This document shows, piece after piece, positions 4,459-64,000 of a stretch of 64,000 nt of DNA (position 1 is the first letter of the stretch; each line of letters begins with the position of its first letter). Made by a program: the position numbers and the translations under genes. The DNA lies in assembly GCF_009931435.1 (NCBI RefSeq), contig NZ_CP043414.1; one strand, 5' to 3'. This DNA is from Escherichia coli (GTDB taxonomy: Bacteria > Pseudomonadota > Gammaproteobacteria > Enterobacterales > Enterobacteriaceae). The notes below the pieces were generated by a model. The model did not search any database and was not told where the DNA came from. It saw only the letters and a list, made by a program, of their open reading frames with translations.

Positions 4459-5348
4459 CAGCGACTACCCGCAATTTGTTGGCAACCCAGCCAGCCTTCA
4501 CGTCCGGCAATATTTCCGCGAACAACTTGTCCGAGCGGCAACGTCCCTGATAACAGTTCGCTTAAAGGGCAAAATGTCACGCCTTCCTGGGCTGCGCGTT
4601 TCAGGAGATCCACAAAATTATGCTGATAAGCGCAGCCTTCAACTTCTGCATGAATGGTATAAACCGGCGTGCCTTTATCTCGCAGGATGCGGTTGAGTAA
4701 CCAACCGTTAAAATCTTCAGCTTTCACATCCCGACCAATCACTTCATCCCAGGTGGGTAAGGTCACCGGAATTTGCGCCGTGCCGGGTTTTCCTGTTTCG
4801 AGCAATGGACGAAACGGCATAGCCCCACGACAATCGCTGTTGTAGCGCAAATGGAACGCTTCTTTTGCTTCGATCACCTGCTGGTCGGCACGCCAGCCAG
4901 CGGCTGCGGAGCAGGTTACCGGTTGGCCGATAATTTCTTCCAGGGTGCGAAGGCCGCGTGCGATATCGTCGACCATTGTTTGCCGATCCCAGTTACTGCT
5001 ATGGGCTTGCCAGGCATGGTGATCCCAGGCGTGCAGGCCGACTTCGTGATGTTTAGCCGCTTCACGAATGATATCGGCATTGGCATGACCAATCTCTTTA
5101 CCTGGCCAGGCCGTACCTGCCAGTAAAATATCCCAGCCATAAAGCGATGCCGCGTTTGAGCGCAGCATCTTCCACAAAAACTGTGGCTTCACCAGTCGCC
5201 AGAGATGGCGGCCCATATTGTCCGGGCCGACGCTGAAAAAAATGCTGGCCTGAATATTATGCTTACTCAAGATTTCCAGCAGACGCGGCACGCCTTCACG
5301 GGTGCCACGAAAGGTATCGACATCAATGCGTAAGCCTACTTTTGTCAT
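4458..5348 (-). CDS. arnD: 4-deoxy-4-formamido-L-arabinose-phosphoundecaprenol deformylase (296 aa)
   Basis: 296-aa polysaccharide-deacetylase-like ORF; overlaps arnA and arnT ends. Confidence 0.95.
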
Positions 5349-24161: not shown

Positions 24162-25238
24162 ATGAAATTGACGCTGAAAAACCTTAGCATGGCGATCATG
24201 ATGAGTGGAATGATCATGGGAAGCAGTGCAATGGCGGCGGATAGCAACGAAAAAATAGTCATCGCCCATCGCGGTGCCAGTGGATATTTACCGGAGCATA
24301 CGCTGCCAGCAAAAGCGATGGCGTATGCGCAGGGGGCAGATTATCTGGAACAGGATTTGGTGATGACCAAAGACGACCATCTGGTTGTTCTGCATGACCA
24401 TTATCTCGATCGTGTTACTGATGTCGCCGATCGTTTCCCGGACAGGGCGCGTAAAGATGGCCGTTACTACGCGATAGATTTTACGCTGGATGAAATTAAG
24501 TCGCTGAAATTTACCGAAGGTTTCGATATTGAAAACGGTAAAAAAGTGCAGACTTATCCGGGGCGTTTCCCGATGGGTAAGTCTGACTTCCGGGTGCACA
24601 CCTTTGAAGAAGAGATTGAATTTGTTCAGGGGTTAAATCACTCTACCGGGAAAAATATCGGTATCTATCCAGAAATTAAAGCGCCGTGGTTCCATCATCA
24701 GGAAGGGAAGGATATTGCGGCAAAAACGCTGGAAGTGCTGAAGAAATATGGTTACACCGGCAAGGACGACAAAGTTTATTTGCAATGTTTTGATGTTGAT
24801 GAACTGAAGCGCATTAAAAATGAGCTGGAACCCAAAATGGGCATGGACCTCAATCTGGTACAGTTGATTGCCTATACCGACTGGAATGAAACGCAGCAGA
24901 AACAGCCGGACGGAAGCTGGGTTAATTACAGCTATGACTGGATGTTCAAGCCGGGCGCTATGAAACAGGTAGCGGAATATGCTGATGGCATTGGTCCGGA
25001 TTACCATATGGTGATTGAGGAGACATCGCAGCCGGGTAATATCAAGCTTACCGGAATGGTAAAAGATGCACAGCAGAATAAGCTGGTGGTGCATCCTTAT
25101 ACCGTGCGGGTCGACAAGCTGCCGGAATATGCCACCGATGTGAATCAGTTGTATGATGCTCTGTATAACAAAGCGGGTGTAAATGGGCTGTTTACTGATT
25201 TCCCTGATAAGGCAGTAAAATTCCTTAATAAAGAGTAA
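24162..25238 (+). CDS. glpQ: periplasmic glycerophosphodiester phosphodiesterase (358 aa)
   Basis: Start at MKLTLKNLSMAIMM with RBS GGAGG; signal peptide followed by HRGASGYLPEHT motif. Confidence 0.95.
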   Translation: MKLTLKNLSMAIMMSGMIMGSSAMAADSNEKIVIAHRGASGYLPEHTLPAKAMAYAQGADYLEQDLVMTKDDHLVVLHDHYLDRVTDVADRFPDRARKDGRYYAIDFTLDEIKSLKFTEGFDIENGKKVQTYPGRFPMGKSDFRVHTFEEEIEFVQGLNHSTGKNIGIYPEIKAPWFHHQEGKDIAAKTLEVLKKYGYTGKDDKVYLQCFDVDELKRIKNELEPKMGMDLNLVQLIAYTDWNETQQKQPDGSWVNYSYDWMFKPGAMKQVAEYADGIGPDYHMVIEETSQPGNIKLTGMVKDAQQNKLVVHPYTVRVDKLPEYATDVNQLYDALYNKAGVNGLFTDFPDKAVKFLNKE

Positions 25239-25248
25239 TGCTACTGCA

Positions 25249-25270
25249 GGATGGCGTTTATGCGCCATCC
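25249..25270 (+). terminator. Hairpin downstream of glpQ
   Basis: GGATGGCG-TTTAT-GCGCCATCC perfect stem-loop 11 nt after the glpQ stop; no strong T-tract. It lies at the boundary of the AT-rich islet. Confidence 0.45.
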
Positions 25271-25457
25271 TCTGCTAAAGCGAAATAATGCTACTACCGG
25301 TTATTCTTTTCATTAACGGGTGCATCCTGTAAAAAGATGCCAACATAATTTTCGTAAAACTCATTCGTTAAAAAAGCTAACACTGTGCATTGTTATTCTT
25401 TAAACAGTATGAATAGGTCTCAATAATAAATTGTAATGCAGTTTATACTGTAAAGTA

Positions 25458-26528
25458 TTATTCGAATTTCGGAAAGGTAAAGAAAATATTAATGTATCTT
25501 ATTAATTTATCATATTGTTCTTGGGTGAATGCTGTTTGCACACCTTCAGGGCAATATTTACCAGTAATAACCAGTTGCCCATTGCTGTGTTGTACCATTA
25601 AACCTTCTTTTTCCTTTGGATCTACAAAATTAGAATTATCAAATGTGAAGATATTTTTTTCCTGTTTTGAGTAAGTAAAGAAATCTCGTGTATAGCTGAA
25701 ACTATCATTTATTAATGGTGCTAACTTTTTGTCGGCGATATCGATAAGCTCACCACTTAATTTATTGATGTATTTAATTTGCTTCAATTTTTTCTGCGCT
25801 TGCACAATTTGCTTGTAGGTGTTTTCAATTTTTTTAGAAGAATTCTTAAATACATCATAGCGTTCCTCGGAGGATGTGTATTTGTACCATTCTGTATTTT
25901 TCTCAGAATGTTGTAGCAGGTCTGTATATTTTTTTTGATCGCTGTAAAGTTGACTTTTAATACTTTCCTCACTGCTGATCTTATAATGTTTATCAGAGTT
26001 GTTTGTTTTTGAAATGTCCTTTTCTGTCAGTGTCTGGTCCGTGTTGTGGGTATTTTCTTTTGCAACATGCTCATTGATGATGTTAATTGCAGTTTCATAT
26101 TCATTTAAATTTATTGTTCTTTGTGAAAGAAACCCTTCTTTGCTTTCGATACTCAAAACACCTTCGTTGTTTTCACCTCTGGTAAAGGTAAGGATATAGG
26201 GTTCATAATCTTCTGCAAATTCATTTTTATACGTTATGACATGCTCGACAAAATGTCTTATTGGTACGAAACCATAACTGTGAACGTCAATTTTTTTGGT
26301 CTTGACACTATCAATTTCATCTGAGGCTTTCGTGAAAAAAGCCAATAAATTAGCTATGTTGTCTGCTGAGGTTGATAACCCGAATCTACTTTGAGATATT
26401 TTTAGAAACTCATTGCAAAAAATCTCAAGTTTCGCGGTTTGTTGTGATTCTTTGTAAATTTCTGCTGTTTGCAATTTATTATTTTGTAAAATATTACAGC
26501 GAGATAAGTGAATAGATGTATTTGGCAT
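25458..26528 (-). CDS. Hypothetical protein, AT-rich orphan ORF (356 aa from the RBS-supported start; 368 aa from the first ATG)
   Basis: Long uninterrupted ORF with about 30% GC in a roughly 51% GC chromosome; AAGGA Shine-Dalgarno 7 nt upstream of the ATG at 26528; no signal peptide or TM helix evident; Lys/Glu/Ser/Asn-rich central segment; no family recognised. Confidence 0.6.
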   Translation of the reverse strand: MPNTSIHLSRCNILQNNKLQTAEIYKESQQTAKLEIFCNEFLKISQSRFGLSTSADNIANLLAFFTKASDEIDSVKTKKIDVHSYGFVPIRHFVEHVITYKNEFAEDYEPYILTFTRGENNEGVLSIESKEGFLSQRTINLNEYETAINIINEHVAKENTHNTDQTLTEKDISKTNNSDKHYKISSEESIKSQLYSDQKKYTDLLQHSEKNTEWYKYTSSEERYDVFKNSSKKIENTYKQIVQAQKKLKQIKYINKLSGELIDIADKKLAPLINDSFSYTRDFFTYSKQEKNIFTFDNSNFVDPKEKEGLMVQHSNGQLVITGKYCPEGVQTAFTQEQYDKLIRYINIFFTFPKFE

Positions 26529-26993
26529 AAATGATTCCTTGTAGTGTGAGTTAACAAGATACAATTTAATCTTTGCAGAATATATTCACTATCAAATTTA
26601 GCTCATTTTATTACGAAGACCTTTACGCATGTTAGAAAGTATCATTATTGTTAATAAATACGGTAATAAGTAACAAACAGATATTGATAACTTCCCTGAC
26701 AAGTTATTAGGTATCCCACTTGAAGATTGAGAATGGCTCCAGAGTAGACTGTGTACTGTTCGCCGGAGTGTCATTACTCTCAACAATCGGTTTTGACAGT
26801 GAGTCGGGCGCTTCATACCGGTTTCTACCTGGAGTCATTGTCACTTCCCTAATCTGGATAAATATTTATCGCTAATTCACAAAGTGGACCAAAATCAGGT
26901 GAAAACGAATTATTACGCATGGTAAAGACTACAGGCCAACTAAGTGTGGCGAATCAGACAATCTTACATTTGTCATCAATCTCATGTCTCACA

Positions 26994-27212
26994 TCAAATT
27001 TTTCCACTCACCACGAGTTGTTCCGTACACGTTTGTAGTAAAAACAGTGGACTGCCTTCTACCGGCTTTTCTTTAGCCAACAACGAAATCTGTCGATAGA
27101 AGGTTGGTTCGTGAGGAACGGAACACAATTCACCTGCAATGGTTTTCAGCGTTAACTCTGGTAATAAGGCGATGCCTAATCCCTGTCGAATAAAATTCAT
27201 CGCTGTATCCAT
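26994..27212 (-). pseudogene. yfaH: LysR-family regulator C-terminal remnant
   Basis: 72-aa ORF resembling the C-terminal effector domain end of LysR regulators (MDTAMNFIRQGLGIALLPE...); no room for the N-terminal HTH before inaA. Confidence 0.6.
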
Positions 27213-27415
27213 CTGATTAAATTCACATTTTATTTGCTGGGCGCACTATTAGTGGTAGTGGCTGGTGGAGTCTATGCGCTGCAAATGAAGGGTAAAAGCG
27301 GTGTCGCGCTAGTAGTGGCAAAAGAAATTCATTAATACGACACGTTTCATTAAGATTTTTCGCAGGTAACCACCTATAGTCATTGTCGTTAATAAAAAAT
27401 GACAGGCGATAGGGT

Positions 27416-29649: not shown

Positions 29650-31935
29650 TCAGATTTTACATGCGCCGCTTTCGCAGCCATCGTCCTGGATTGACGGCAC
29701 CAGATCGTCTTGTGCGTCTTCAGCACCGTCACGGGTGTTCTGATAATACAGCGTTTTGACCCCGAATTTGTAGGCGGTGAGCAGGTCTTTCAGCAACTGC
29801 TGCATCGGCACTTTTCCTGACGGGAAGCGTGATGGATCGTAGTTGGTGTTAGCAGAGATCGACTGATCGATAAATTTCTGCATGATACCCACCAGTTGCA
29901 GGTAGCCATCGTTACCCGGCATTTCCCACAGCAGCTCATAGGCGTCGTGCAGATGCTCGTAGTCCGGCACCACCTGGCGCAGAATACCGTCTTTCGACGC
30001 TTTGATGCTGACGTAACCACGCGGCGGTTCAATACCGTTAGTAGCGTTAGAGATCTGCGAAGAAGTCTCTGACGGCATCAGAGCAGAAAGCGTGGAGTTA
30101 CGCAGGCCGTGCGTTTTGATTGACTCACGCAGTGCTTCCCAGTCGTAATGCAGCGGCTCATTAGCGATGGCATCCAGATCTTTCTTATAGGTATCGATCG
30201 GCAGGATCCCTTTCGCGTAAGTGGTTTCGTTAAACCACGGGCACGCGCCTTGCTCTTTCGCCAGCTCATTAGAGGCTTTCAGCAGGTAATACTGAATAGC
30301 TTCGAAGGTTTTATGCGTCAGGTTGTTGGCGCTGCCGTCGGAGTAGCGTTTACCGTGCTTCGCCAGGTAGTAAGCGAAGTTGATCACACCAATACCCAGC
30401 GTACGACGACCCATCGCTCCACGTTTGGCGGCCGGGATCGGGTAATCCTGATAATCCAGCAGCGCGTCGAGTGCGCGTACTGCCAGAATCGCCAGCTCTT
30501 CCAGTTCATCCAGGCTATTAATTGCGCCCAGGTTGAAAGCAGACAGCGTACACAGCGCGATTTCACCGTTCTCGTCGTTGACATCATTCAGCGGTTTGGT
30601 CGGCAGGGCGATTTCCAGGCACAGGTTAGACTGGCGCACTGGCGCGATGGCCGGATCAAACGGGCTATGGGTATTGCAGTGGTCAACGTTCTGAATATAG
30701 ATACGACCGGTAGACGCACGTTCCTGCATCATCAGCGAGAACAGCTCAACGGCTTTCACACGCTGCTTGCGGATGCTGTCGTCTTTCTCATATTTGGTGT
30801 ACAGGCGTTCAAACTCTTCCTGATCGGCGAAGAACGCGTCGTACAGCCCCGGTACGTCGGACGGGCTGAACAGGGTGATATCTTCACCTTTCAGCAGACG
30901 GGTATACATCAGTTTGTTGATTTGTACCCCGTAGTCCATATGACGCACGCGGTTGCCTTCAACCCCACGGTTGTTTTTCAACACCAGCAGGCTTTCCACT
31001 TCCAGATGCCACATAGGGTAGAACAGTGTTGCCGCACCGCCGCGCACACCGCCCTGAGAGCAGGATTTCACTGCCGTCTGGAAATGTTTGTAGAACGGAA
31101 TACAACCGGTGTGGAATGCTTCGCCACCGCGAATCGGGCTACCCAGCGCACGAATACGCCCGGCGTTAATGCCGATCCCGGCACGCTGGGAAACGTATTT
31201 AACAATCGCGCTGGAGGTGGCGTTGATGGAATCCAGGCTGTCGCCGCACTCGATCAGTACGCAGGAGCTGAACTGACGAGTCGGGGTACGCACGCCGGAC
31301 ATGATTGGCGTCGGCAGCGAAATTTTAAATGTGGAAACCGCGTCGTAAAAACGCTTCACGTATTGCAGGCGCGTTTCACGCGGGTAGTTCGAGAACAGGC
31401 ACGCAGCAACCAGAATATAGAGGAACTGGGCGCTCTCATAGATTTCGCCGGTCACGCGGTTCTGTACCAGATATTTGCCTTCCAGCTGCTTAACGGCAGC
31501 ATAAGAGAAGGTCATATCACGGTCGTGATCGATAAACGTGTCCATCTGCTTGAACTCTTCTTCCGTGTAGTCTTCCAGCAGATGATTATCGTATTTGCCC
31601 ATCTCGACCATTTTCACCACGTGGTCGTACAGCGCAGGCGGCTCAAACTGGCCATAGGCTTTTTTACGCAGGTGGAAAATTGCCAGGCGCGCGGCGAGAT
31701 ACTGATAATCCGGCGCATCACGGGAGATCAGGTCTGCGGCAGCCTTGATAATGGTTTCGTGGATGTCAGAGGTCTTGATACCGTCATAAAACTGAATGTG
31801 GGAGCGCAGCTCGACCTGGGAAATCGAAACGTTATGCAGTCCTTCTGCCGCCCAATCCAGAACGCGATGGATTTTGTCGAGATTGATGCGCTCTGTGCTA
31901 CCGTCGCGCTTTGTCACCAGCAGATTCTGATTCAT
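29650..31935 (-). CDS. nrdA: class Ia ribonucleotide reductase alpha subunit (761 aa)
   Basis: Start at [25 protein letters not shown] (ATP-cone); the longer track ORF is rejected. Confidence 0.95.
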
Positions 31936-32009
31936 GTATGTCGTACCTGTTTTTGGAATTCTTTCCGCAATAGTTTCATGCAGACTACCTGTAGTGAGGG
32001 AAGCTGCTA

Positions 32010-32100
32010 AGAACACTATATATAGGGGGTATGTTTGGGATTCACTGCAAGATAGTGTGAAAATGGCCCTCTTGCAAGTGCATAACTTTGTGGATAACTC
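32010..32100 (-). promoter_or_regulatory. nrdAB promoter region with a DnaA box and NrdR-box-like motifs
   Basis: Perfect TTATCCACA on the nrd strand at 32089-32097; ACACTATATATAG (32013-32025) and GATAGTGTGA (32051-32060) resemble NrdR boxes. Confidence 0.5.
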
Positions 32101-32624
32101 AGGAAGGAAAAAGTGGCTTCCGCGCACCTTAGGTCAGACAAGGTATCCGGGAAAGTCAATGGGAAGAGAAAAATTTGTTAAAAATAACTGTTCGGCGATT
32201 TCTTGAACGGCAGAATAGTATGGGTAAATTGATATAGATGGTTTATTAATCTTGTCGCTAATGATTGTCAAAATTGATCTAAGCACGAATCATCACATAA
32301 TCTGATGTATCAGTTGTGGTCAATATATAAGCGAATGTAAGCGATTGTTGAGTCGGAAATGGTTGTTTTCTATTCGGTTATTGTTAAATACCAAGCCAAT
32401 TTGTTACTTTTGCATATATTATAAGAATATTATTTATTACTTTAATTCAGTTTACATATAACCGATTTACCTTAAGGTTATTAATTTGAATTATGACACA
32501 CTGATATTATTCATCAAATAATAACAAAATAGTCATTGCACCGGGTTGTACAATTTACAAAAGAAATATACCCCATAGCGCATAATGCGATTAAATACGC
32601 CGTCTTATAGAAAATGATGGTTAG

Positions 32625-35600
32625 ATGAATATGCGGATTATCTTTCTACGCAAGGAGTATTTATCTTTACTCCCGTCAATGATTGCATCTCTTTTCTCTG
32701 TTAACAGTGTTGCGGAGGTTTTGGATTCATGCCAGGGATATGATATCAAAGCGAGTTGTCAGGCCAGCAGGCAAAGCCTTTCAGGCATTACGCAGGACTG
32801 GAGCATCGCCAATGGGCAATGGGTGATTTTTTCGGGTATGGCCAATAATGCTAGCGGTGGCGCCGTATTTTTGCAACAAGGAGCGGAGTTTTCTCTATCG
32901 CCAGAAAATGAAACTGGAATGACTCTGTTTGCCAATAATACTGTCTCAGGAGAATATAATAATGGCGGGGCAATATTTGCTAAAGAAAACTCAACGCTGA
33001 ATCTTACTGATGTTATTTTTTCCGGTAACGTCGCAGGCGGCTATGGTGGCGCAATCTATTCTTCTGGTACTAATGATACTGGTGCCGTCGATTTACGTGT
33101 CACTAACACCATGTTTATCAATAACATCGCTAATGATGGCAAAGGTGGCGCAATTTATACCATCAATAATGATGTCTATTTAAGTGATGATGTTTTTAAT
33201 AATAACCAGGCATATACATCAACAAGTTACAGTGATGGCGATGGTGGTGCAATCGATGTCACCGATAATAATAGCGATATCACGCATCCGTCAGGTTTCA
33301 CAATAATAAATAACACCGCATTTACAAATAACACTGCCGAAGGTTATGGCGGGGCAATTTATACCAATAGCGTGACGGCTCCCTATCTTATTGATATTTC
33401 TGTTGATGACAGCTACAGCCAGAACGGCGGTGTGTTAATCGATGAGAACAATTGCGCAGCAGGCTATGGGGATGGTCCTTCCACTGCGGCGGGCGGCTTT
33501 ATGTATCTCGGCTTAAGTGAAGTTACCTTTGATATTGCTGACGGAAAAACGCTGGTTATCGGCAATACAGAGAATGATGGAGCTGTTGACTCTATTGCTG
33601 GTACCGGGTTGATCACCAAAACAGGTTCCGGCGATCTGGTACTTAATGCAGATAACAATGACTTTACTGGTGAGATGCAGATTGAAAACGGTGAAGTTAC
33701 CCTGGGTCGCAGCAACTCCCTGATGAATGTCGGAGATAATCATTGCCAGGACGATCCGCAAGACTGCTACGGTCTGACGATAGGGAGTATTGATAAGTAC
33801 CAGAATCAGGCAGAGCTAAATGTTGGCTCCACCCAACAAACCTTTGTGCACGCATTGACGGGCTTTCAGAATGGCACTTTAAATATCGATGCTGGTGGCA
33901 ATGTTACTGTTAATCAAGGCAGTTTTGCTGGCACCATCGAAGGTGCTGGTCAGCTCACCATTGCGCAAAACGGCAGCTACGTGCTGGCAGGGGCGCAGTC
34001 GATGGCGCTAACTGGCGATATAGTCGTTGATGATGGCGCGGTGCTTACGCTAGAAGGCGACGCGGCAGATCTCGCCGCTCTCCAGGACGAGCCGCAGTCG
34101 ATCGTGTTAAACGGCGGTGTGCTCGATCTCTCTGATTTCTCCACCTGGCAGAGCGGCACATCATACAACGATGGCCTTGAAGTCAGCGGCAGCAGCGGAA
34201 CGGTTATCGGCAGTCAGGATGTGGTAGATCTTGCAGGCGGAAACGATATGCATATCGGCGGCGACGGGAAAGATGGCGTCTACGTGGTGGTCGATGCGGG
34301 TGATGGGCAGGTCAGCCTGGCAAATGACAATCAATACCTCGGCACAACGCAAATTGCTTCCGGTACGCTGGTGGTGAGTGACAACTCGCAGCTTGGAGAT
34401 ACCCACTATAACCGCCAGGTTATCTTTACCGATAATCAACAAGAAAGCGTGATGGAGATTACTGCCAATGTCGATACTCGCTCTACAACGGTTGAGCATG
34501 GGCGTGATATTGAAATGCGCGCCGACGGTGAAGTGGCAGTTGATGCGGGGGTAGACACGCAGTGGGGCGCACTGATGGCTGACAGCAGCGGGCAGCATCA
34601 GGATGAGGGTAGCACATTGACTAAAACGGGTGCTGGCACCCTGGAGCTGACCGCCAGCGGTACTACGCAGTCTGCGGTACGTGTTGAAGAAGGTACCCTG
34701 AAAGGCGATGTTGCGGATATTTTTCCTTATGCTTCGTCGCTGTGGATTGGTGACGGAGCAACGTTCGAGACTGGCGCAGATCAGGATATCCAGTCTATTG
34801 ATGCTACTTCCAGCGGCACTATCGACATCAGTGATGGCACCGTTTTGCGCCTGACGAGTCAGGATACTTCCGCCGCACTGGATGCCTCGCTGTTTAACGG
34901 CGACGGTACGTTGGTGAATGCCACCGATGGCGTGACGTTGACAGGCGAGCTTAATACTAACCTGGAAACTGACAGCCTGACCTATCTTTCCGATGTGACG
35001 GTTAATGGTGATCTAACCAATATGTCCGGTACAGTCAGTCTGCAAAATGGCGTCGCTGGCGATACGCTCACGGTAAACGGTGATTACACCGGCGGCGGTA
35101 CGTTGTTTCTCGACAGCGAATTAAACGGCGATGACTCGGTAAGCGACCAACTGGTGTTGAACGGCAATACCTCGGGTAACACGACCGTGGTGGTTAACCC
35201 CATTACCGGCACTGGTGAACCGACTTCTACAGGTATTAAAGTGGTTGATTTCACTGCTGATCCCACGCAATTTCAAAACAATGCGCTGTTTAGTCTTGCG
35301 GGCAGCGGCTACGTTAATATGGGAGCGTATGACTACACGCTGGTGGAAGATAACAACGACTGGTATCTGCGATCGCAAGAAGTCACTCCGACGCCGCCGC
35401 CCGATCCGGACCCGACTCCAGATCCTGATCCCACGCCGGATCCTGATCCAACACCCGACCCGGCTCCAGCCCCTACGCCTGCCTACCAGCCGGTGCTGAA
35501 CGCCAAAGTTGGTGGCTATCTCAATAACCTACGTGCGGCAAATCAGGCATTTGTGATGGAGCGACGCGATCACGCTGGTGGCGATGGTCAGACGCTGAAT

Positions 35601-36389
35601 TTACGTGTTATCGGCGGAGATTATCATTACACGGCGGCAGGGCAGTTGGCCCAGCATGAAGACACTTCTACGGTACAGCTTAGCGGCAACTTGTTAAGCG
35701 GATACTGGGGCGATGATGGCCAGTGGATGCTAGGGGCCGTGGGCGGCTACAGCGATAACCAGGGTGACAGTCGATCAAACATGACCGGAACTCGCGCTGA
35801 TAACCAGAACTACGGTTATGCCGTTGGGCTGACCTCAAGCTGGTTTCAGCACCGTAGCCAAAAACAGGGGGCCTGGCTGGATAGCTGGCTGCAATACGCG
35901 TGGTTTAACAATGATGTTTCCGAACATGAAGATGGCGTGGATCATTACCACTCATCGGGGATTATCGCCTCGCTGGAAGCGGGGTATCAGTGGTTACCGG
36001 GGCGTGGTGTGGTGATTGAACCACAGGTGCAGGTGATTTATCAGGGTGTGCAGCAGGATGATTTTACCGCTGCTAACCATGCGCGGGTATCGCAATCGCA
36101 GGGCGATGATCTTCAGACGCGGTTGGGGATACACAGCGAATGGCGTACCGCTGTGCATATCACGCCAACCCTGGATCTGAATTATTATCACGATCCCCAT
36201 TCGGCGGGGATTGAAGAAGATGGCAGCGCTATCAGTGACGATGCGGTGAAGCAACGGGGTGAAATAAAAGTGGGGATAACAGGCAATATAAGTCAGCGAG
36301 TTTCCCTGCGTGGCAGCGTGGTGTGGCAGAAAGGAGACGATGGTTTTGTCCAAACGGCTGGGTTTCTATCGATGAGGGTGAAATGGTAA
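32625..36389 (+). CDS. yfaL: AIDA-I-type autotransporter adhesin (about 1250 aa)
   Basis: Signal-peptide-like N-terminus, long beta-helical passenger with repeated GGAIY motifs, proline-rich linker, and a C-terminal beta-barrel translocator ending in aromatic residues. The true start may be the ATG at 32631 (MRIIFL). Confidence 0.85.
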   Translation: MNMRIIFLRKEYLSLLPSMIASLFSVNSVAEVLDSCQGYDIKASCQASRQSLSGITQDWSIANGQWVIFSGMANNASGGAVFLQQGAEFSLSPENETGMTLFANNTVSGEYNNGGAIFAKENSTLNLTDVIFSGNVAGGYGGAIYSSGTNDTGAVDLRVTNTMFINNIANDGKGGAIYTINNDVYLSDDVFNNNQAYTSTSYSDGDGGAIDVTDNNSDITHPSGFTIINNTAFTNNTAEGYGGAIYTNSVTAPYLIDISVDDSYSQNGGVLIDENNCAAGYGDGPSTAAGGFMYLGLSEVTFDIADGKTLVIGNTENDGAVDSIAGTGLITKTGSGDLVLNADNNDFTGEMQIENGEVTLGRSNSLMNVGDNHCQDDPQDCYGLTIGSIDKYQNQAELNVGSTQQTFVHALTGFQNGTLNIDAGGNVTVNQGSFAGTIEGAGQLTIAQNGSYVLAGAQSMALTGDIVVDDGAVLTLEGDAADLAALQDEPQSIVLNGGVLDLSDFSTWQSGTSYNDGLEVSGSSGTVIGSQDVVDLAGGNDMHIGGDGKDGVYVVVDAGDGQVSLANDNQYLGTTQIASGTLVVSDNSQLGDTHYNRQVIFTDNQQESVMEITANVDTRSTTVEHGRDIEMRADGEVAVDAGVDTQWGALMADSSGQHQDEGSTLTKTGAGTLELTASGTTQSAVRVEEGTLKGDVADIFPYASSLWIGDGATFETGADQDIQSIDATSSGTIDISDGTVLRLTSQDTSAALDASLFNGDGTLVNATDGVTLTGELNTNLETDSLTYLSDVTVNGDLTNMSGTVSLQNGVAGDTLTVNGDYTGGGTLFLDSELNGDDSVSDQLVLNGNTSGNTTVVVNPITGTGEPTSTGIKVVDFTADPTQFQNNALFSLAGSGYVNMGAYDYTLVEDNNDWYLRSQEVTPTPPPDPDPTPDPDPTPDPDPTPDPAPAPTPAYQPVLNAKVGGYLNNLRAANQAFVMERRDHAGGDGQTLNLRVIGGDYHYTAAGQLAQHEDTSTVQLSGNLLSGYWGDDGQWMLGAVGGYSDNQGDSRSNMTGTRADNQNYGYAVGLTSSWFQHRSQKQGAWLDSWLQYAWFNNDVSEHEDGVDHYHSSGIIASLEAGYQWLPGRGVVIEPQVQVIYQGVQQDDFTAANHARVSQSQGDDLQTRLGIHSEWRTAVHITPTLDLNYYHDPHSAGIEEDGSAISDDAVKQRGEIKVGITGNISQRVSLRGSVVWQKGDDGFVQTAGFLSMRVKW

Positions 36390-60654: not shown

Positions 60655-63327
60655 CTACAGCAAGCTCTTGACATAACTGTCAATGTCGCTGATGTATTTT
60701 TCTATTCCTGGAACATCCTTCTCACGAATCAGATGTTCCAGCGTTTCACATAACTGCTTGCCGGGTACCAGATTTAGCATGGCAAATACGCCTTTAAGAC
60801 GATGAGCCGTTTGGGCTAACGCAGCAAAGTCACTGGTTGCTGCTTCAGTATACAGCCTCTTAACATCATCCGGTACTGTGTCTACAAAGAGCGCATAATA
60901 GCCGCTGGCATGGAGTTGCGCATTTTCATCTCCGCCCAGAGGCGATTCTGTCACCTCTTCCTGCGCCAGTTGCACTTCAATTAATTGTAAGACCGCTTCC
61001 TGCATAGCGTTGCTCATATTGAAGTTGACGCACAATTGACCAGGCCCAATTTCCCGTACGCCAGACTCATCATCGCTTAAAAGCAAGCCAGAGGCAGTAA
61101 GATTAGACGGATTATCCGTTAAAAAGATATCATAATCTTGACTAATTAATCTTTCATCGGGTGTGATACAGGTTGCACCCCAATTTTCTAACTGGCGAGT
61201 GACAATATTCCGAATTTCTGCTGAAGTGACATCCACCATTACGCAGACATCATCCAGTAAACGCTCTTCTTCCTCTTCAACTTCCGGATCAGCTGCGAGC
61301 ATTTTGATATGCACAGAATAGCGTGTACCAAGCCCGTCCCGCGTTTTGATGTTTAAATGACCGCCCAGTTTACGCGCCAGTTGATCGCTCAACCAGAATG
61401 CCAGCGGGTCGGCCTTGCCATAGCGATCGTTTTGGGTCCGGTTGATAAACGGGAAGTGCAAATTATCCATTTCATGAATGCTTACGCCTTCACCGGTGTC
61501 CAGAATGCGGAAAGTCAGGCGGTCTTCGGACGATTCATCCTGATCAACCTCAAGGGTGATTTTTCCCAATTGTGTTGAGGTCACGGCATATTGCATCAAT
61601 AGCAGCAAAATACGGCGTAAGGCATCGCGATCGCCACGGCGCATATCGTGTGCTTTCAGATGATTGTTAATCAGCAGTTGCAGTCCTTTACGCTTGATGG
61701 CAGGCAATACTGAAGGCACAACTTCATCAATCAAATCCTGCACGGAGAACAGCTCCGTCTCACTTTTCCAGCTATCGTCCGCAAGCATATTCGCTAACTG
61801 TATTTCATCGACCAGCCGCACCAGCACATCTGCCTGATTCGCCAGTTGTTTGCCTTCCGGGGCGTTGAGTTTAGCCGCGCTCTCCGCCAGGGACTGTGCG
61901 GGTTCTTTCAGCGCATCGCCAATGTTTTTCATAAAGGTCATCCGCCCCTGCTGGTTTTTCTCATACAGACGCTGCGCCTGCTTGAGTTTCTTGTTTACCA
62001 GCACTTCGCGATCCTGATCGCGAATAATGAAAATTTGTGTGCGCGGCGCAACCTGGCTGCGGAACATGCGGATCTCATACAGCTCGTTATTGATCGTCGC
62101 CTGAATAATCCCCTGATGCTGCTCCGCCATGGTAGTGATGTTTTGCAGATTTAAATGCGGCAGCAAATGATCGGCAATTTTGTTACTTATGACAGTGCGG
62201 TTCGATTCCTGATCGTGAACCAGCAAGCCGAGCGGCAGCAGTGAGACTATCTCTTCATTAATTGCCCGTAAAATGCGCAATTCGTTATTGACCGCCGTGC
62301 TGGGGACGCTTTCTGTACTGCGGCTGGAGAAATGGCGGAATGTGGTATAGCCAAATAACGCCAGCGCCAGCAAACCGATGTTCAGCAGCAGTGGCAGCAG
62401 AATGTTTTGCAACGTATCCAGCAATAAGGTGCCATAAGGAACCTGCCAGACCAGGCGCATATCGGTAGAGTTGAGTGCCGAGGAGATTTCAATCTTCGTA
62501 CTGTTAAAGTGGATACTGACGCTATCCGTCCCTTCTTTCTCATTTTCATTGTTTCCCGTTGCCGTCGCGTCTGGCTCAAGGCGGAAACTGTCCAGCGGCA
62601 TACCCGGTGGGATCAAATCATTAATCGGCAGATCAAAAGCAACGACCGTTGCCAGATGTCCCGGCTGGTTGAACGTGGTACGCAAGGTAAAGTAATGACC
62701 GTTCTGCCAGGCCAGGCGGCGCAGGTTAGAAAAACTTTCGCGTTCATCGAGCGCGTTGGCCTGTTGCAACATCTCTGCGCGACGTGAATCAACAATGTCG
62801 CTGACGGTCGATTCTTTAAATCCGGAGGTGAGATCTTTGAGGGGCAGGGTCGAGATCAGTACCAGACTGTTATCCTGACCATTCAGGTAATACATCGACC
62901 ACGGTATATTTTCTGCGCCCCATAACGTGTCCAGATAGGTGGACATCCGTTGAGTCATCTCAAGCGTTGAGTTGTCGTGAGAGCCAAAGATTAACGCTTC
63001 CGTTTTGCGGCGTGGTTTTTCCAGATAGTAGACATCCTGTTTCAGGCGCGTCTCTTGTAAACCTTCGCCGGAGGAGGGGGAGGTCGTCGCGGCAATGTTG
63101 TCGTAGATCTGCCAGGTCACATAACGCCAGGTATCGACGCGCTTTTGGATAGCGTGGGTAATGTCGACAATCTGGTAACTTTTATCTTTCAGCCAGGCGT
63201 TAACGGCGCTTTGTACCATTACACCCATCGTCACCAGTAACACAATGATCAACAGTAAAAAGAAGCGGGTAATGCTCCCCGGTAGGAGTGAAAAGCGGGT
63301 CGTGGCCGTTGTCTCTTTCTGACGCAT
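60655..63327 (-). CDS. rcsD: phosphotransfer intermediate RcsD (890 aa)
   Basis: 890-aa ORF with N-terminal TM region, degenerate kinase-like domain and C-terminal HPt domain. Confidence 0.95.
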   Translation of the reverse strand: MRQKETTATTRFSLLPGSITRFFLLLIIVLLVTMGVMVQSAVNAWLKDKSYQIVDITHAIQKRVDTWRYVTWQIYDNIAATTSPSSGEGLQETRLKQDVYYLEKPRRKTEALIFGSHDNSTLEMTQRMSTYLDTLWGAENIPWSMYYLNGQDNSLVLISTLPLKDLTSGFKESTVSDIVDSRRAEMLQQANALDERESFSNLRRLAWQNGHYFTLRTTFNQPGHLATVVAFDLPINDLIPPGMPLDSFRLEPDATATGNNENEKEGTDSVSIHFNSTKIEISSALNSTDMRLVWQVPYGTLLLDTLQNILLPLLLNIGLLALALFGYTTFRHFSSRSTESVPSTAVNNELRILRAINEEIVSLLPLGLLVHDQESNRTVISNKIADHLLPHLNLQNITTMAEQHQGIIQATINNELYEIRMFRSQVAPRTQIFIIRDQDREVLVNKKLKQAQRLYEKNQQGRMTFMKNIGDALKEPAQSLAESAAKLNAPEGKQLANQADVLVRLVDEIQLANMLADDSWKSETELFSVQDLIDEVVPSVLPAIKRKGLQLLINNHLKAHDMRRGDRDALRRILLLLMQYAVTSTQLGKITLEVDQDESSEDRLTFRILDTGEGVSIHEMDNLHFPFINRTQNDRYGKADPLAFWLSDQLARKLGGHLNIKTRDGLGTRYSVHIKMLAADPEVEEEEERLLDDVCVMVDVTSAEIRNIVTRQLENWGATCITPDERLISQDYDIFLTDNPSNLTASGLLLSDDESGVREIGPGQLCVNFNMSNAMQEAVLQLIEVQLAQEEVTESPLGGDENAQLHASGYYALFVDTVPDDVKRLYTEAATSDFAALAQTAHRLKGVFAMLNLVPGKQLCETLEHLIREKDVPGIEKYISDIDSYVKSLL

Positions 63328-63638
63328 TCGTGTTTATGACCTGTTAAAACTTCGCGAAGTGATAGGGCAGTATAAAGGGTACAGTGTGAAATTCCAGACT
63401 CTTACCTGATTGATGATTCTCTATTCTCCCGTGATATTTATCATCCTGCATTGGGGGAAATAGATGTACAAGCGCCATTTTGCTGTACAAATAACCTACA
63501 AAAAGCCTAACGAAATTAATTGCAAATAAACGAAGATTGCTGGAAATTATGCTGATGTTAATTATTTGTGAAATAGTTAACAAGCGTTATAGTTTTTCTG
63601 TGGTAGCACAGAATAATGAAAAGTGTGTAAAGAAGGGT

Positions 63639-63731
63639 AAAAAAAACCGGATGCGAGGCATCCGGTTGAAATAGGGGTAAACAGACATTCAGAAATGAAT
63701 GACGGTAATAAATAAAGTTAATGATGATAGC
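63639..63731 (-). ncRNA. micF: MicF antisense sRNA (93 nt)
   Basis: The reverse complement reads GCTATCATCATTAACTTTATTTATTACCGTCATTCATTTCTGAATGTCTGTTTACCCC...CCGGATGCCTCGCATCCGG followed by eight T: the MicF sequence with its terminator hairpin. Confidence 0.85.
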
Positions 63732-63887
63732 GGGAGATATTCTAGTTGCGAGTGAAGGTTTTGTTTTGACATTCAGTGCTGTCAAATACTTAAGAATAAG
63801 TTATTGATTTTAACCTTGAATTATTATTGCTTGATGTTAGGTGCTTATTTCGCCATTCCGCAATAATCTTAAAAAGTTCCCTTGTAT

Positions 63888-63990
63888 TTACATTCTGAAA
63901 CATCTATAGCGATAAATGAAACATCTTAAAAGTTTTAGTATCATATTCGTGTTGGATTATTCTGCATTTTTGGGGAGAATGGACTTGCCG
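63888..63990 (+). promoter_or_regulatory. ompC promoter region with OmpR-binding sites (ompC coding sequence lies beyond the window)
   Basis: TTTACATTCTGAAACATCTATAGCGATAAATGAAACATCTTAAAAGTTTTAGTATCATATTCGTGTTGG matches the ompC upstream OmpR-box region as I recall it; divergent from micF. Confidence 0.6.
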
Positions 63991-64000
63991 ACTGATTAAT

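Follow-up and report, generated by a model that had tools for sequence, protein, structure and literature searches.

The DNA between nrdA and yfaL of Escherichia coli K-12 has already been published as a promoter island. Island 2342143_534, yfaL(-)/ypaB(-), is recorded as H-NS-bound 'according to all studies' (Grainger, Kahramanoglou and Oshima) and as associated with predicted foreign genes (Panyukov & Ozoline 2013, PMC3661553). The same table holds further cryptic adhesin or fimbrial loci, namely ycgV, yadN, sfmA, elfA, yehD, yfcV and fim (PMC3661553). These H-NS-bound adhesin and fimbrial islands (for fim, the fimB/fimE/fimA region) are AT-rich over at least 300 bp and carry many promoter-like sites; they combine H-NS occupancy with low transcriptional output and lie upstream of surface-adhesin genes.

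Several genome-wide datasets bear on the same K-12 locus. RpoD-holoenzyme SELEX gave a peak in the yfaL-nrdA spacer that was flagged HNS, and TTGATC-16-CATAAT was assigned as the 'constitutive promoter' of yfaL (Shimada et al. 2014). By ChAP-seq, the yfaL coding region and its transcription unit were bound by H-NS, as was the nrdAB-yfaE unit, but not the nrdA coding region (Higashi et al. 2016). The genome-wide map of transcription start sites (TSSs) found the start of nrdA and none for yfaL (Kim et al. 2012). GadX ChIP-exo peaks P16 and P17 lie at 2342146-2342207 of K-12 (Seo et al. 2015, Supplementary Table 3), and yfaL was without differential expression under that GadX study and without a known TSS (Seo et al. 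2015). Biofilm phenotypes of YfaL have been reported only after insertion of a constitutive promoter. For K-12, the literature has shown that H-NS occupies the locus, that RNA polymerase binds it in vitro and that yfaL is without a TSS. Our preliminary description of the present DNA, made from the letters alone, had anticipated H-NS occupancy at this locus, and the K-12 orthologue bears this out, being bound in compiled ChIP sets, genomic SELEX and ChAP-seq.

The other side of the spacer belongs to nrdAB, which H-NS is named in reviews as repressing or binding. NrdR boxes 1 and 2 lie downstream of the nrdA promoter (PMC12176259). The nrd literature describes control by Fis and IciA, together with an AT-rich element lying upstream and an inverted repeat of 45 bp on the upstream side of the DnaA boxes.

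We consider it probable that the AT-rich tract and the 5' end of yfaL constitute an H-NS platform that silences yfaL, adjoining a separate nrdAB control block. Because the K-12 literature covers this exact locus, both the locus and its association with H-NS are already known: the region recognised from sequence alone is the catalogued K-12 H-NS-bound promoter island before a cryptic adhesin gene. Our additions are modest, and consist of a split in conservation at a single position, 32209/32210, and the retention of length and AT content while the sequence itself turns over.

Layout of the nrdA-yfaL spacer

The window (the whole 64-kb stretch of DNA analysed) contains the E. coli gyrA-ubiG-yfaL-nrdAB-yfaE region, in reversed orientation relative to K-12. 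The RefSeq annotation of near-identical genomes places the ATG of nrdA at 31935 on the minus strand and the ATG of yfaL at 32631 on the plus strand. The nrdA coding sequence, for the alpha subunit of class Ia ribonucleotide reductase, accordingly occupies 29650..31935 (minus strand) in the RefSeq annotation of matching genomes, and the corrected spacer is 31936-32630, a stretch of 695 bp with 34.5% GC. The preliminary description had bounded it more narrowly, at 32128-32624 (hereafter, the span), and neither edge survived. The left edge is an ORF artefact, since the mechanically called nrdA ORF runs on in frame past its ATG to a GTG at 32127, and the right edge arose from an extra in-frame ATG at 32625 ahead of yfaL, where K-12 has ATT.

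Positions in K-12 (U00096.2) were converted to window coordinates by x = 2374822 - y, where y is the K-12 position, anchored on the start codons of nrdA and yfaL. So converted, promoter island 2342143_534 (PMC3661553) corresponds to 32146..32679, essentially the span. Its location, flanked by nrdA/ypaB and yfaL, and its length are the same, and the whole 801-bp alignment of the window with K-12 is free of indels. The AT-rich part of the K-12 island is likewise 28-29% GC and is 90% identical, and the SELEX-assigned promoter TTGATC-16-CATAAT is retained here. The window differs from the K-12 island by 42 substitutions in 420 bp, by the ATG at 32625 in place of ATT, and by a host that has diverged by about 9-10% at neutral sites. 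The two GadX ChIP-exo footprints, as mapped in K-12, fall at 32615..32676 and straddle the yfaL start codon (Seo 2015).

On the nrdA side, the K-12 TSS at 2342780, with its 107-nt UTR (Kim 2012 supplement), maps to window position 32042, and the 107-nt nrdA 5' UTR therefore covers 31936..32042 on the minus strand. Palindromes resembling NrdR boxes were recognised from sequence within it at approximately 31981-32028. The core promoter extends over 32042..32099 (minus strand), with the -10 element TATCTT at 32049-32054 and the -35 element TTGCAA at 32072-32077, and it includes two DnaA boxes at 32078-32087 and 32090-32099. The AT-rich DNA had been described as shared divergently with the nrdAB promoter. 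This is true of the whole spacer and untrue of the span, because the nrdA TSS, the -10 and -35 elements and the DnaA boxes all lie to the left of 32128.

Within the nrdA 5' UTR, 13 bp (31955-31967) present here and in K-12 are missing from some E. coli (e.g. WP5-S18-ESBL-09), and a 9-bp gap lies almost at this position in E. whittamii. The AT-rich tract was rejected as the site of a 14-bp length difference seen in some E. coli: 13 bp of it are the deletion from the nrdA 5' UTR, and the remaining 1 bp falls at 32546.

On the other side, yfaL (ehaC) is annotated at 32631..36389 on the plus strand, with the alternative in-frame ATG at 32625, and encodes an intact AIDA-I-type autotransporter adhesin of 1252 amino acids. 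Its Pfam matches are Autotransporter beta-domain, AC_1 (autochaperone), PATR and Pertactin. YfaL is 92% identical in amino acid sequence to its K-12 counterpart; NrdA differs from K-12 at 2 of 762 residues and GyrA at none of 876. The gene evolves fast: four-fold degenerate sites of yfaL have diverged from K-12 by 22%, versus 9-10% for nrdA, ubiG and gyrA. Published values are in line with this: dS is 0.36 and dN 0.061 for yfaL, set against dS of 0.07-0.12 and dN of 0.006 or less for its neighbours (Higashi et al. 2016).

Conservation across Escherichia

Further sequences came from a DNA-pattern scan for DnaA boxes, which returned mostly unrelated genomes with tandem boxes and four usable Escherichia loci: E. 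albertii, E. whittamii, Escherichia sp. E1V33 and a divergent 'E. coli', SCPM-O-B-8794. The nrdA core promoter (32042..32099) is invariant in six Escherichia sequences. Upstream of it comes an nrdAB regulatory block conserved throughout the genus (32100..32209, minus strand; roughly positions -58 to -167 relative to the TSS). An A/T run occupies 32167-32191 of the block, which breaks off sharply past TTCTTGAACG (32209). Up to that point the nrdA-side sequence is 87-98% identical across Escherichia species; past it, identity falls to 42-59% between allele classes. The break is genus-wide and lies at a single nucleotide position, 32209/32210. The regulatory region of E. coli nrdAB is matched almost base for base over 31936-32209, whereas most of the span (32210-32624) lies beyond the conserved block and lacks its conservation.

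The first 82 bp of the span (32128-32209) form part of this block and hardly vary in E. albertii, E. whittamii and Escherichia sp. E1V33. It is only over these 82 bp of the span, and not over 32210-32624, that conservation runs on unbroken from the nrdA promoter. Compared with K-12, the nrdA-proximal 275 bp (31936-32210) are 2.2% different, and divergence over 32128-32210 is 1.2%, against 9-10% at four-fold sites of the neighbouring genes. The yfaL-proximal 420 bp (32211-32630) are 10.0% different (42 substitutions, 90% identity), which is the level of the four-fold sites of nrdA, ubiG and gyrA (9.0-10.3%). Judged by these comparisons, the span is two adjoining elements, the end of the nrdAB block (32128-32209) and a yfaL-side tract (32210-32630), and the pattern of conservation indicates strong purifying selection on the nrdAB block throughout the genus.

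A small ORF annotated in K-12-type genomes, ypaB (47 aa; 32063..32206, plus strand), runs antisense to the nrdA promoter and is intact in the window. Its translation is also intact in K-12 and SCPM-O-B-8794; in E. albertii, E. whittamii and Escherichia sp. E1V33, where the DNA is almost invariant, codon 18 is a stop. Because near-invariant DNA carries a stop in three lineages, the conservation of the ypaB region looks regulatory, reflecting the nrdA promoter, rather than protein-coding. The ypaB stop codon precedes the break in conservation (32209) by 3 nt.

These comparisons weigh most directly on the possibility that the AT-rich DNA chiefly controls nrdAB (as a cell-cycle AT-rich cis sequence with an inverted repeat and Fis/IciA sites) rather than silencing yfaL. 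The near-invariance of 32100-32209 across Escherichia, with its A/T run, is what such an element would look like, but conservation stops abruptly at 32209, and since the remaining 421 bp diverge at a neutral or faster rate, down to 42-59% identity between lineages, this explanation fits the first 82 bp of the span only. As an account of the whole we regard it as unlikely. The proposal that the span is an H-NS-silenced adhesin promoter must in turn give up those 82 bp, which belong to the nrdAB block, and its central idea draws support from H-NS binding and the lack of a yfaL TSS in K-12.

The yfaL-linked tract itself (32210..32630; 425 bp when measured to the CGGATT anchor) is AT-rich (29% GC), rich in TpA and fast-evolving. 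Its loss of identity past 32209 matches the fast divergence of yfaL: between the window and SCPM-O-B-8794, four-fold sites have diverged by 48% in yfaL (53-63% in the passenger domain) and by 17% in nrdA. The distance from the break to CGGATT (yfaL codons 2-3) is nevertheless 425, 425, 428, 427, 427 and 427 bp in the six sequences, at 26-30% GC. In 45 metagenomic loci the tract is either 425 bp (E. coli-type) or 427 bp (albertii-type), and in one E. coli group it is 424 bp.

A three-class alignment of the tract contains 144 invariant columns, versus 84 +/- 9 in realigned dinucleotide shuffles, and four invariant runs of at least 5 columns, versus 0.13 +/- 0.42. The allele classes are therefore still homologous, having more and longer invariant runs than the shuffles. 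Columns invariant across the classes form conserved islands at ATTGAT (32228-32233), TTGAT (32274-78), TGTAA (32336-40), TTTT (32366-69), AAAT (32386-89), TGTT (32402-05) and TTACAA (32555-60).

The yfaL orthologue of SCPM-O-B-8794 is only 78% identical. Around positions 4950-5010 of this locus (L016), there is an apparent extra base after the ancestral ATG (ATGAATCAAAAAACGG, versus ATGAATAAAAAACGG in E. albertii), from which it follows that the long yfaL ORF starts only at a downstream GTG and is without the N-terminal signal-peptide extension; the sequence suggests that this yfaL may have a frameshifted start. A peptide-pattern scan of genome contigs for the YfaL N-terminus, using exact 8-mers taken from the present divergent allele, gave no confirmed relative.

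Base composition, curvature and promoter-like sites

The claim that some 500 bp of very AT-rich DNA precede yfaL is well founded. The span has 31.2% GC against 50.7% for the 64-kb window, a value as low as this being reached in only 0.6% of 497-bp segments of the window, and GC falls to 23.8% in a core at 32380-32560. AT content far over the average across several hundred bp, as found over 32128-32624, is what an H-NS-silenced region is expected to show. Low GC persists into the gene, with 41.6% over the first 700 nt of yfaL. TpA steps make up 11.5% of the span and 4.6% of the window, a frequency that equals the expectation from base composition. The tract is rich in TpA steps rather than in A-tracts.

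The description of this DNA as curved-looking did not stand up to analysis. For the curvature profile we used wedge parameters that reportedly go back to Bolshoy et al. 1991. Under this model the span is among the most curved 8% of windows, yet its mean of 7.85 degrees per turn is no higher than that of composition-matched sequence (7.21 +/- 0.86 in Markov-1 resamples; p ~0.2), and AA/TT phasing at 10-11 bp was absent from the span, with power within the range of the resamples. Two local peaks of predicted curvature, at 32172-79 and 32261-76, are the only ones in the span. It shares with phased A-tract DNA its AT-richness and these two peaks, but differs in lacking the 10-11 bp phasing and any curvature beyond composition, and in being rich in TpA; by phased A-tracts and curvature above composition, it is not intrinsically curved DNA.

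Promoter-like sites, taken as matches to the sigma-70 consensus at 9 or more of 12 positions, number five in the 497 bp of the span. This is the maximum for the window, where the mean is 0.86 per kb (64 kb), and it equals the expectation from composition (3.7 +/- 2.2 in dinucleotide shuffles). By this consensus scan, as distinct from PlatProm, the span has the density of sites over at least 300 bp that marks promoter islands. The high-affinity H-NS motif (tCGATAAATT-like, up to 2 mismatches) has two matches, at 32221 and 32272, against 1.9 +/- 1.5 expected.

Individual matches face both ways. The best, ATGACA-18-AATAAT (32493..32522, plus strand, facing yfaL), agrees with the consensus at 10/12 positions and is a candidate by that match only. 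The sigma-70-like TTGATC-16-CATAAT at 32274..32301 (plus strand, facing yfaL), found in our scan, is the one assigned to yfaL by RpoD SELEX; if it were used, transcription would start near 32308 and the 5' UTR would be about 320 nt. On the opposite strand, a TCACA-type match, TCAACA-18-TATATT (32322..32351), faces nrdA and lies some 275 bp further upstream than the known nrdA TSS. This nrdA-facing match recurs at the same alignment position in 5/6 Escherichia sequences despite about 50% sequence divergence, and the K-12 map reports no TSS at the site (Kim 2012).

The predicted start near 32308 leads to a second alternative, in which the tract is a true long 5' leader of yfaL, about 320 nt in length, that acts by post-transcriptional control. 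The holoenzyme-assigned promoter of K-12 is intact here, and its -35 TTGAT and an upstream A-run are kept in all Escherichia lineages; its -10, however, is not kept outside the E. coli-type allele, no yfaL TSS has been detected, and the sequence that would form the leader changes at a neutral rate, with no more than short words kept. Neither Rfam families (no match at E <= 1 over 31000-33500) nor a mapped upstream TSS marks a structured 5' leader or riboswitch, and a terminator scan returned no match. We therefore do not retain the word 'leader', which had been applied to this DNA and is unproven, with no yfaL TSS on record and no Rfam match at E <= 1, and we think a long yfaL leader of this kind very unlikely.

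Proposed silencing of yfaL by H-NS

The reading that we favour, an H-NS platform over the tract and the 5' end of yfaL, would operate as follows. H-NS would bind 32210-32630 and spread into the first ~700 bp of yfaL, which are low in GC; the resulting complex would occlude or trap RNA polymerase at the many promoter-like sites, and yfaL would thereby be kept from transcription in ordinary conditions. This complex would also abut the nrdAB promoter, which it may modulate. We infer the silencing of yfaL because H-NS occupancy coincides with the lack of a TSS; the causal role of H-NS and the sites that would nucleate the complex are likewise proposed. For the present strain, H-NS occupancy of the locus is predicted through orthology with K-12. 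Counting against the platform, the H-NS motif is not enriched and the density of promoter-like sites is not above composition; counting against its transfer to this host, the strain is not K-12 and has diverged from it by 9-10% at four-fold sites. In K-12 the yfaL start codon is a binding site of GadX, and hence further regulators are at work here too. The literature within our reach yielded no measurement of yfaL/EhaC expression in an hns mutant.

What sets the tract apart from the other adhesin islands is that an essential, highly conserved and cell-cycle-regulated operon, nrdAB, adjoins the same spacer, the conservation boundary between the two being sharp to the nucleotide. One further suggestion, which we offer as speculative and hold to be possible though doubtful, is that the tract is under selection for its length (424-428 bp) and composition and not for its sequence. 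It might then be a 'composition-encoded' H-NS platform or an insulator of fixed size that spaces a silenced and rapidly diversifying adhesin gene from an essential, cell-cycle-regulated promoter, with the conserved words ATTGAT, TTGAT, TGTAA and TTACAA as nucleation or promoter anchors; the nrdA-facing match at 32322-32351, conserved in position, falls within it. If the retention of length and AT content does reflect selection, the locus would be a handy natural test of H-NS silencing confined beside an essential promoter.

That the tract is functionless, a neutral AT-rich remnant of an ancient yfaL acquisition to which H-NS binds as a passive by-product of composition, would accord with a divergence from K-12 (10.0%) equal to that of flanking four-fold sites (9-10%) and with motif, curvature and promoter-site counts that are all as composition predicts, but it is hardly credible given a length of 424-428 bp and a GC content of 26-30% held in classes only 42-59% identical, and a homology still detectable in 144 versus 84 +/- 9 invariant columns and 4 versus 0.13 runs of at least 5.

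The 9-10% four-fold divergence of nrdA, ubiG and gyrA sets the host lineage well apart from K-12, and the host, which is not a typical E. coli, may belong to a divergent phylogroup or cryptic clade. The spacer is at least 99% identical in only 10/5658 matching records. For the region, identity of at least 99% is found in only 10-49 of ~5400 complete genomes, with Z0117EC0005, 2013C-4282 and WL297 the best.

Two other stretches of the window are low in GC. The larger, at ~25000-27300 between glpQ and inaA, is strongly low in GC, with a minimum of 29%, and predicted curvature reaches its highest peak in the window here, at 26597. Hypothetical genes and a LysR-family regulator are encoded in this stretch, where K-12 has retained pseudogene fragments only, and at least 80% of it is matched in only 1044/5426 complete E. 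coli genomes. The third low-GC stretch, 63289-64000, forms the right-hand end of the window and has a minimum of 31.8% GC.
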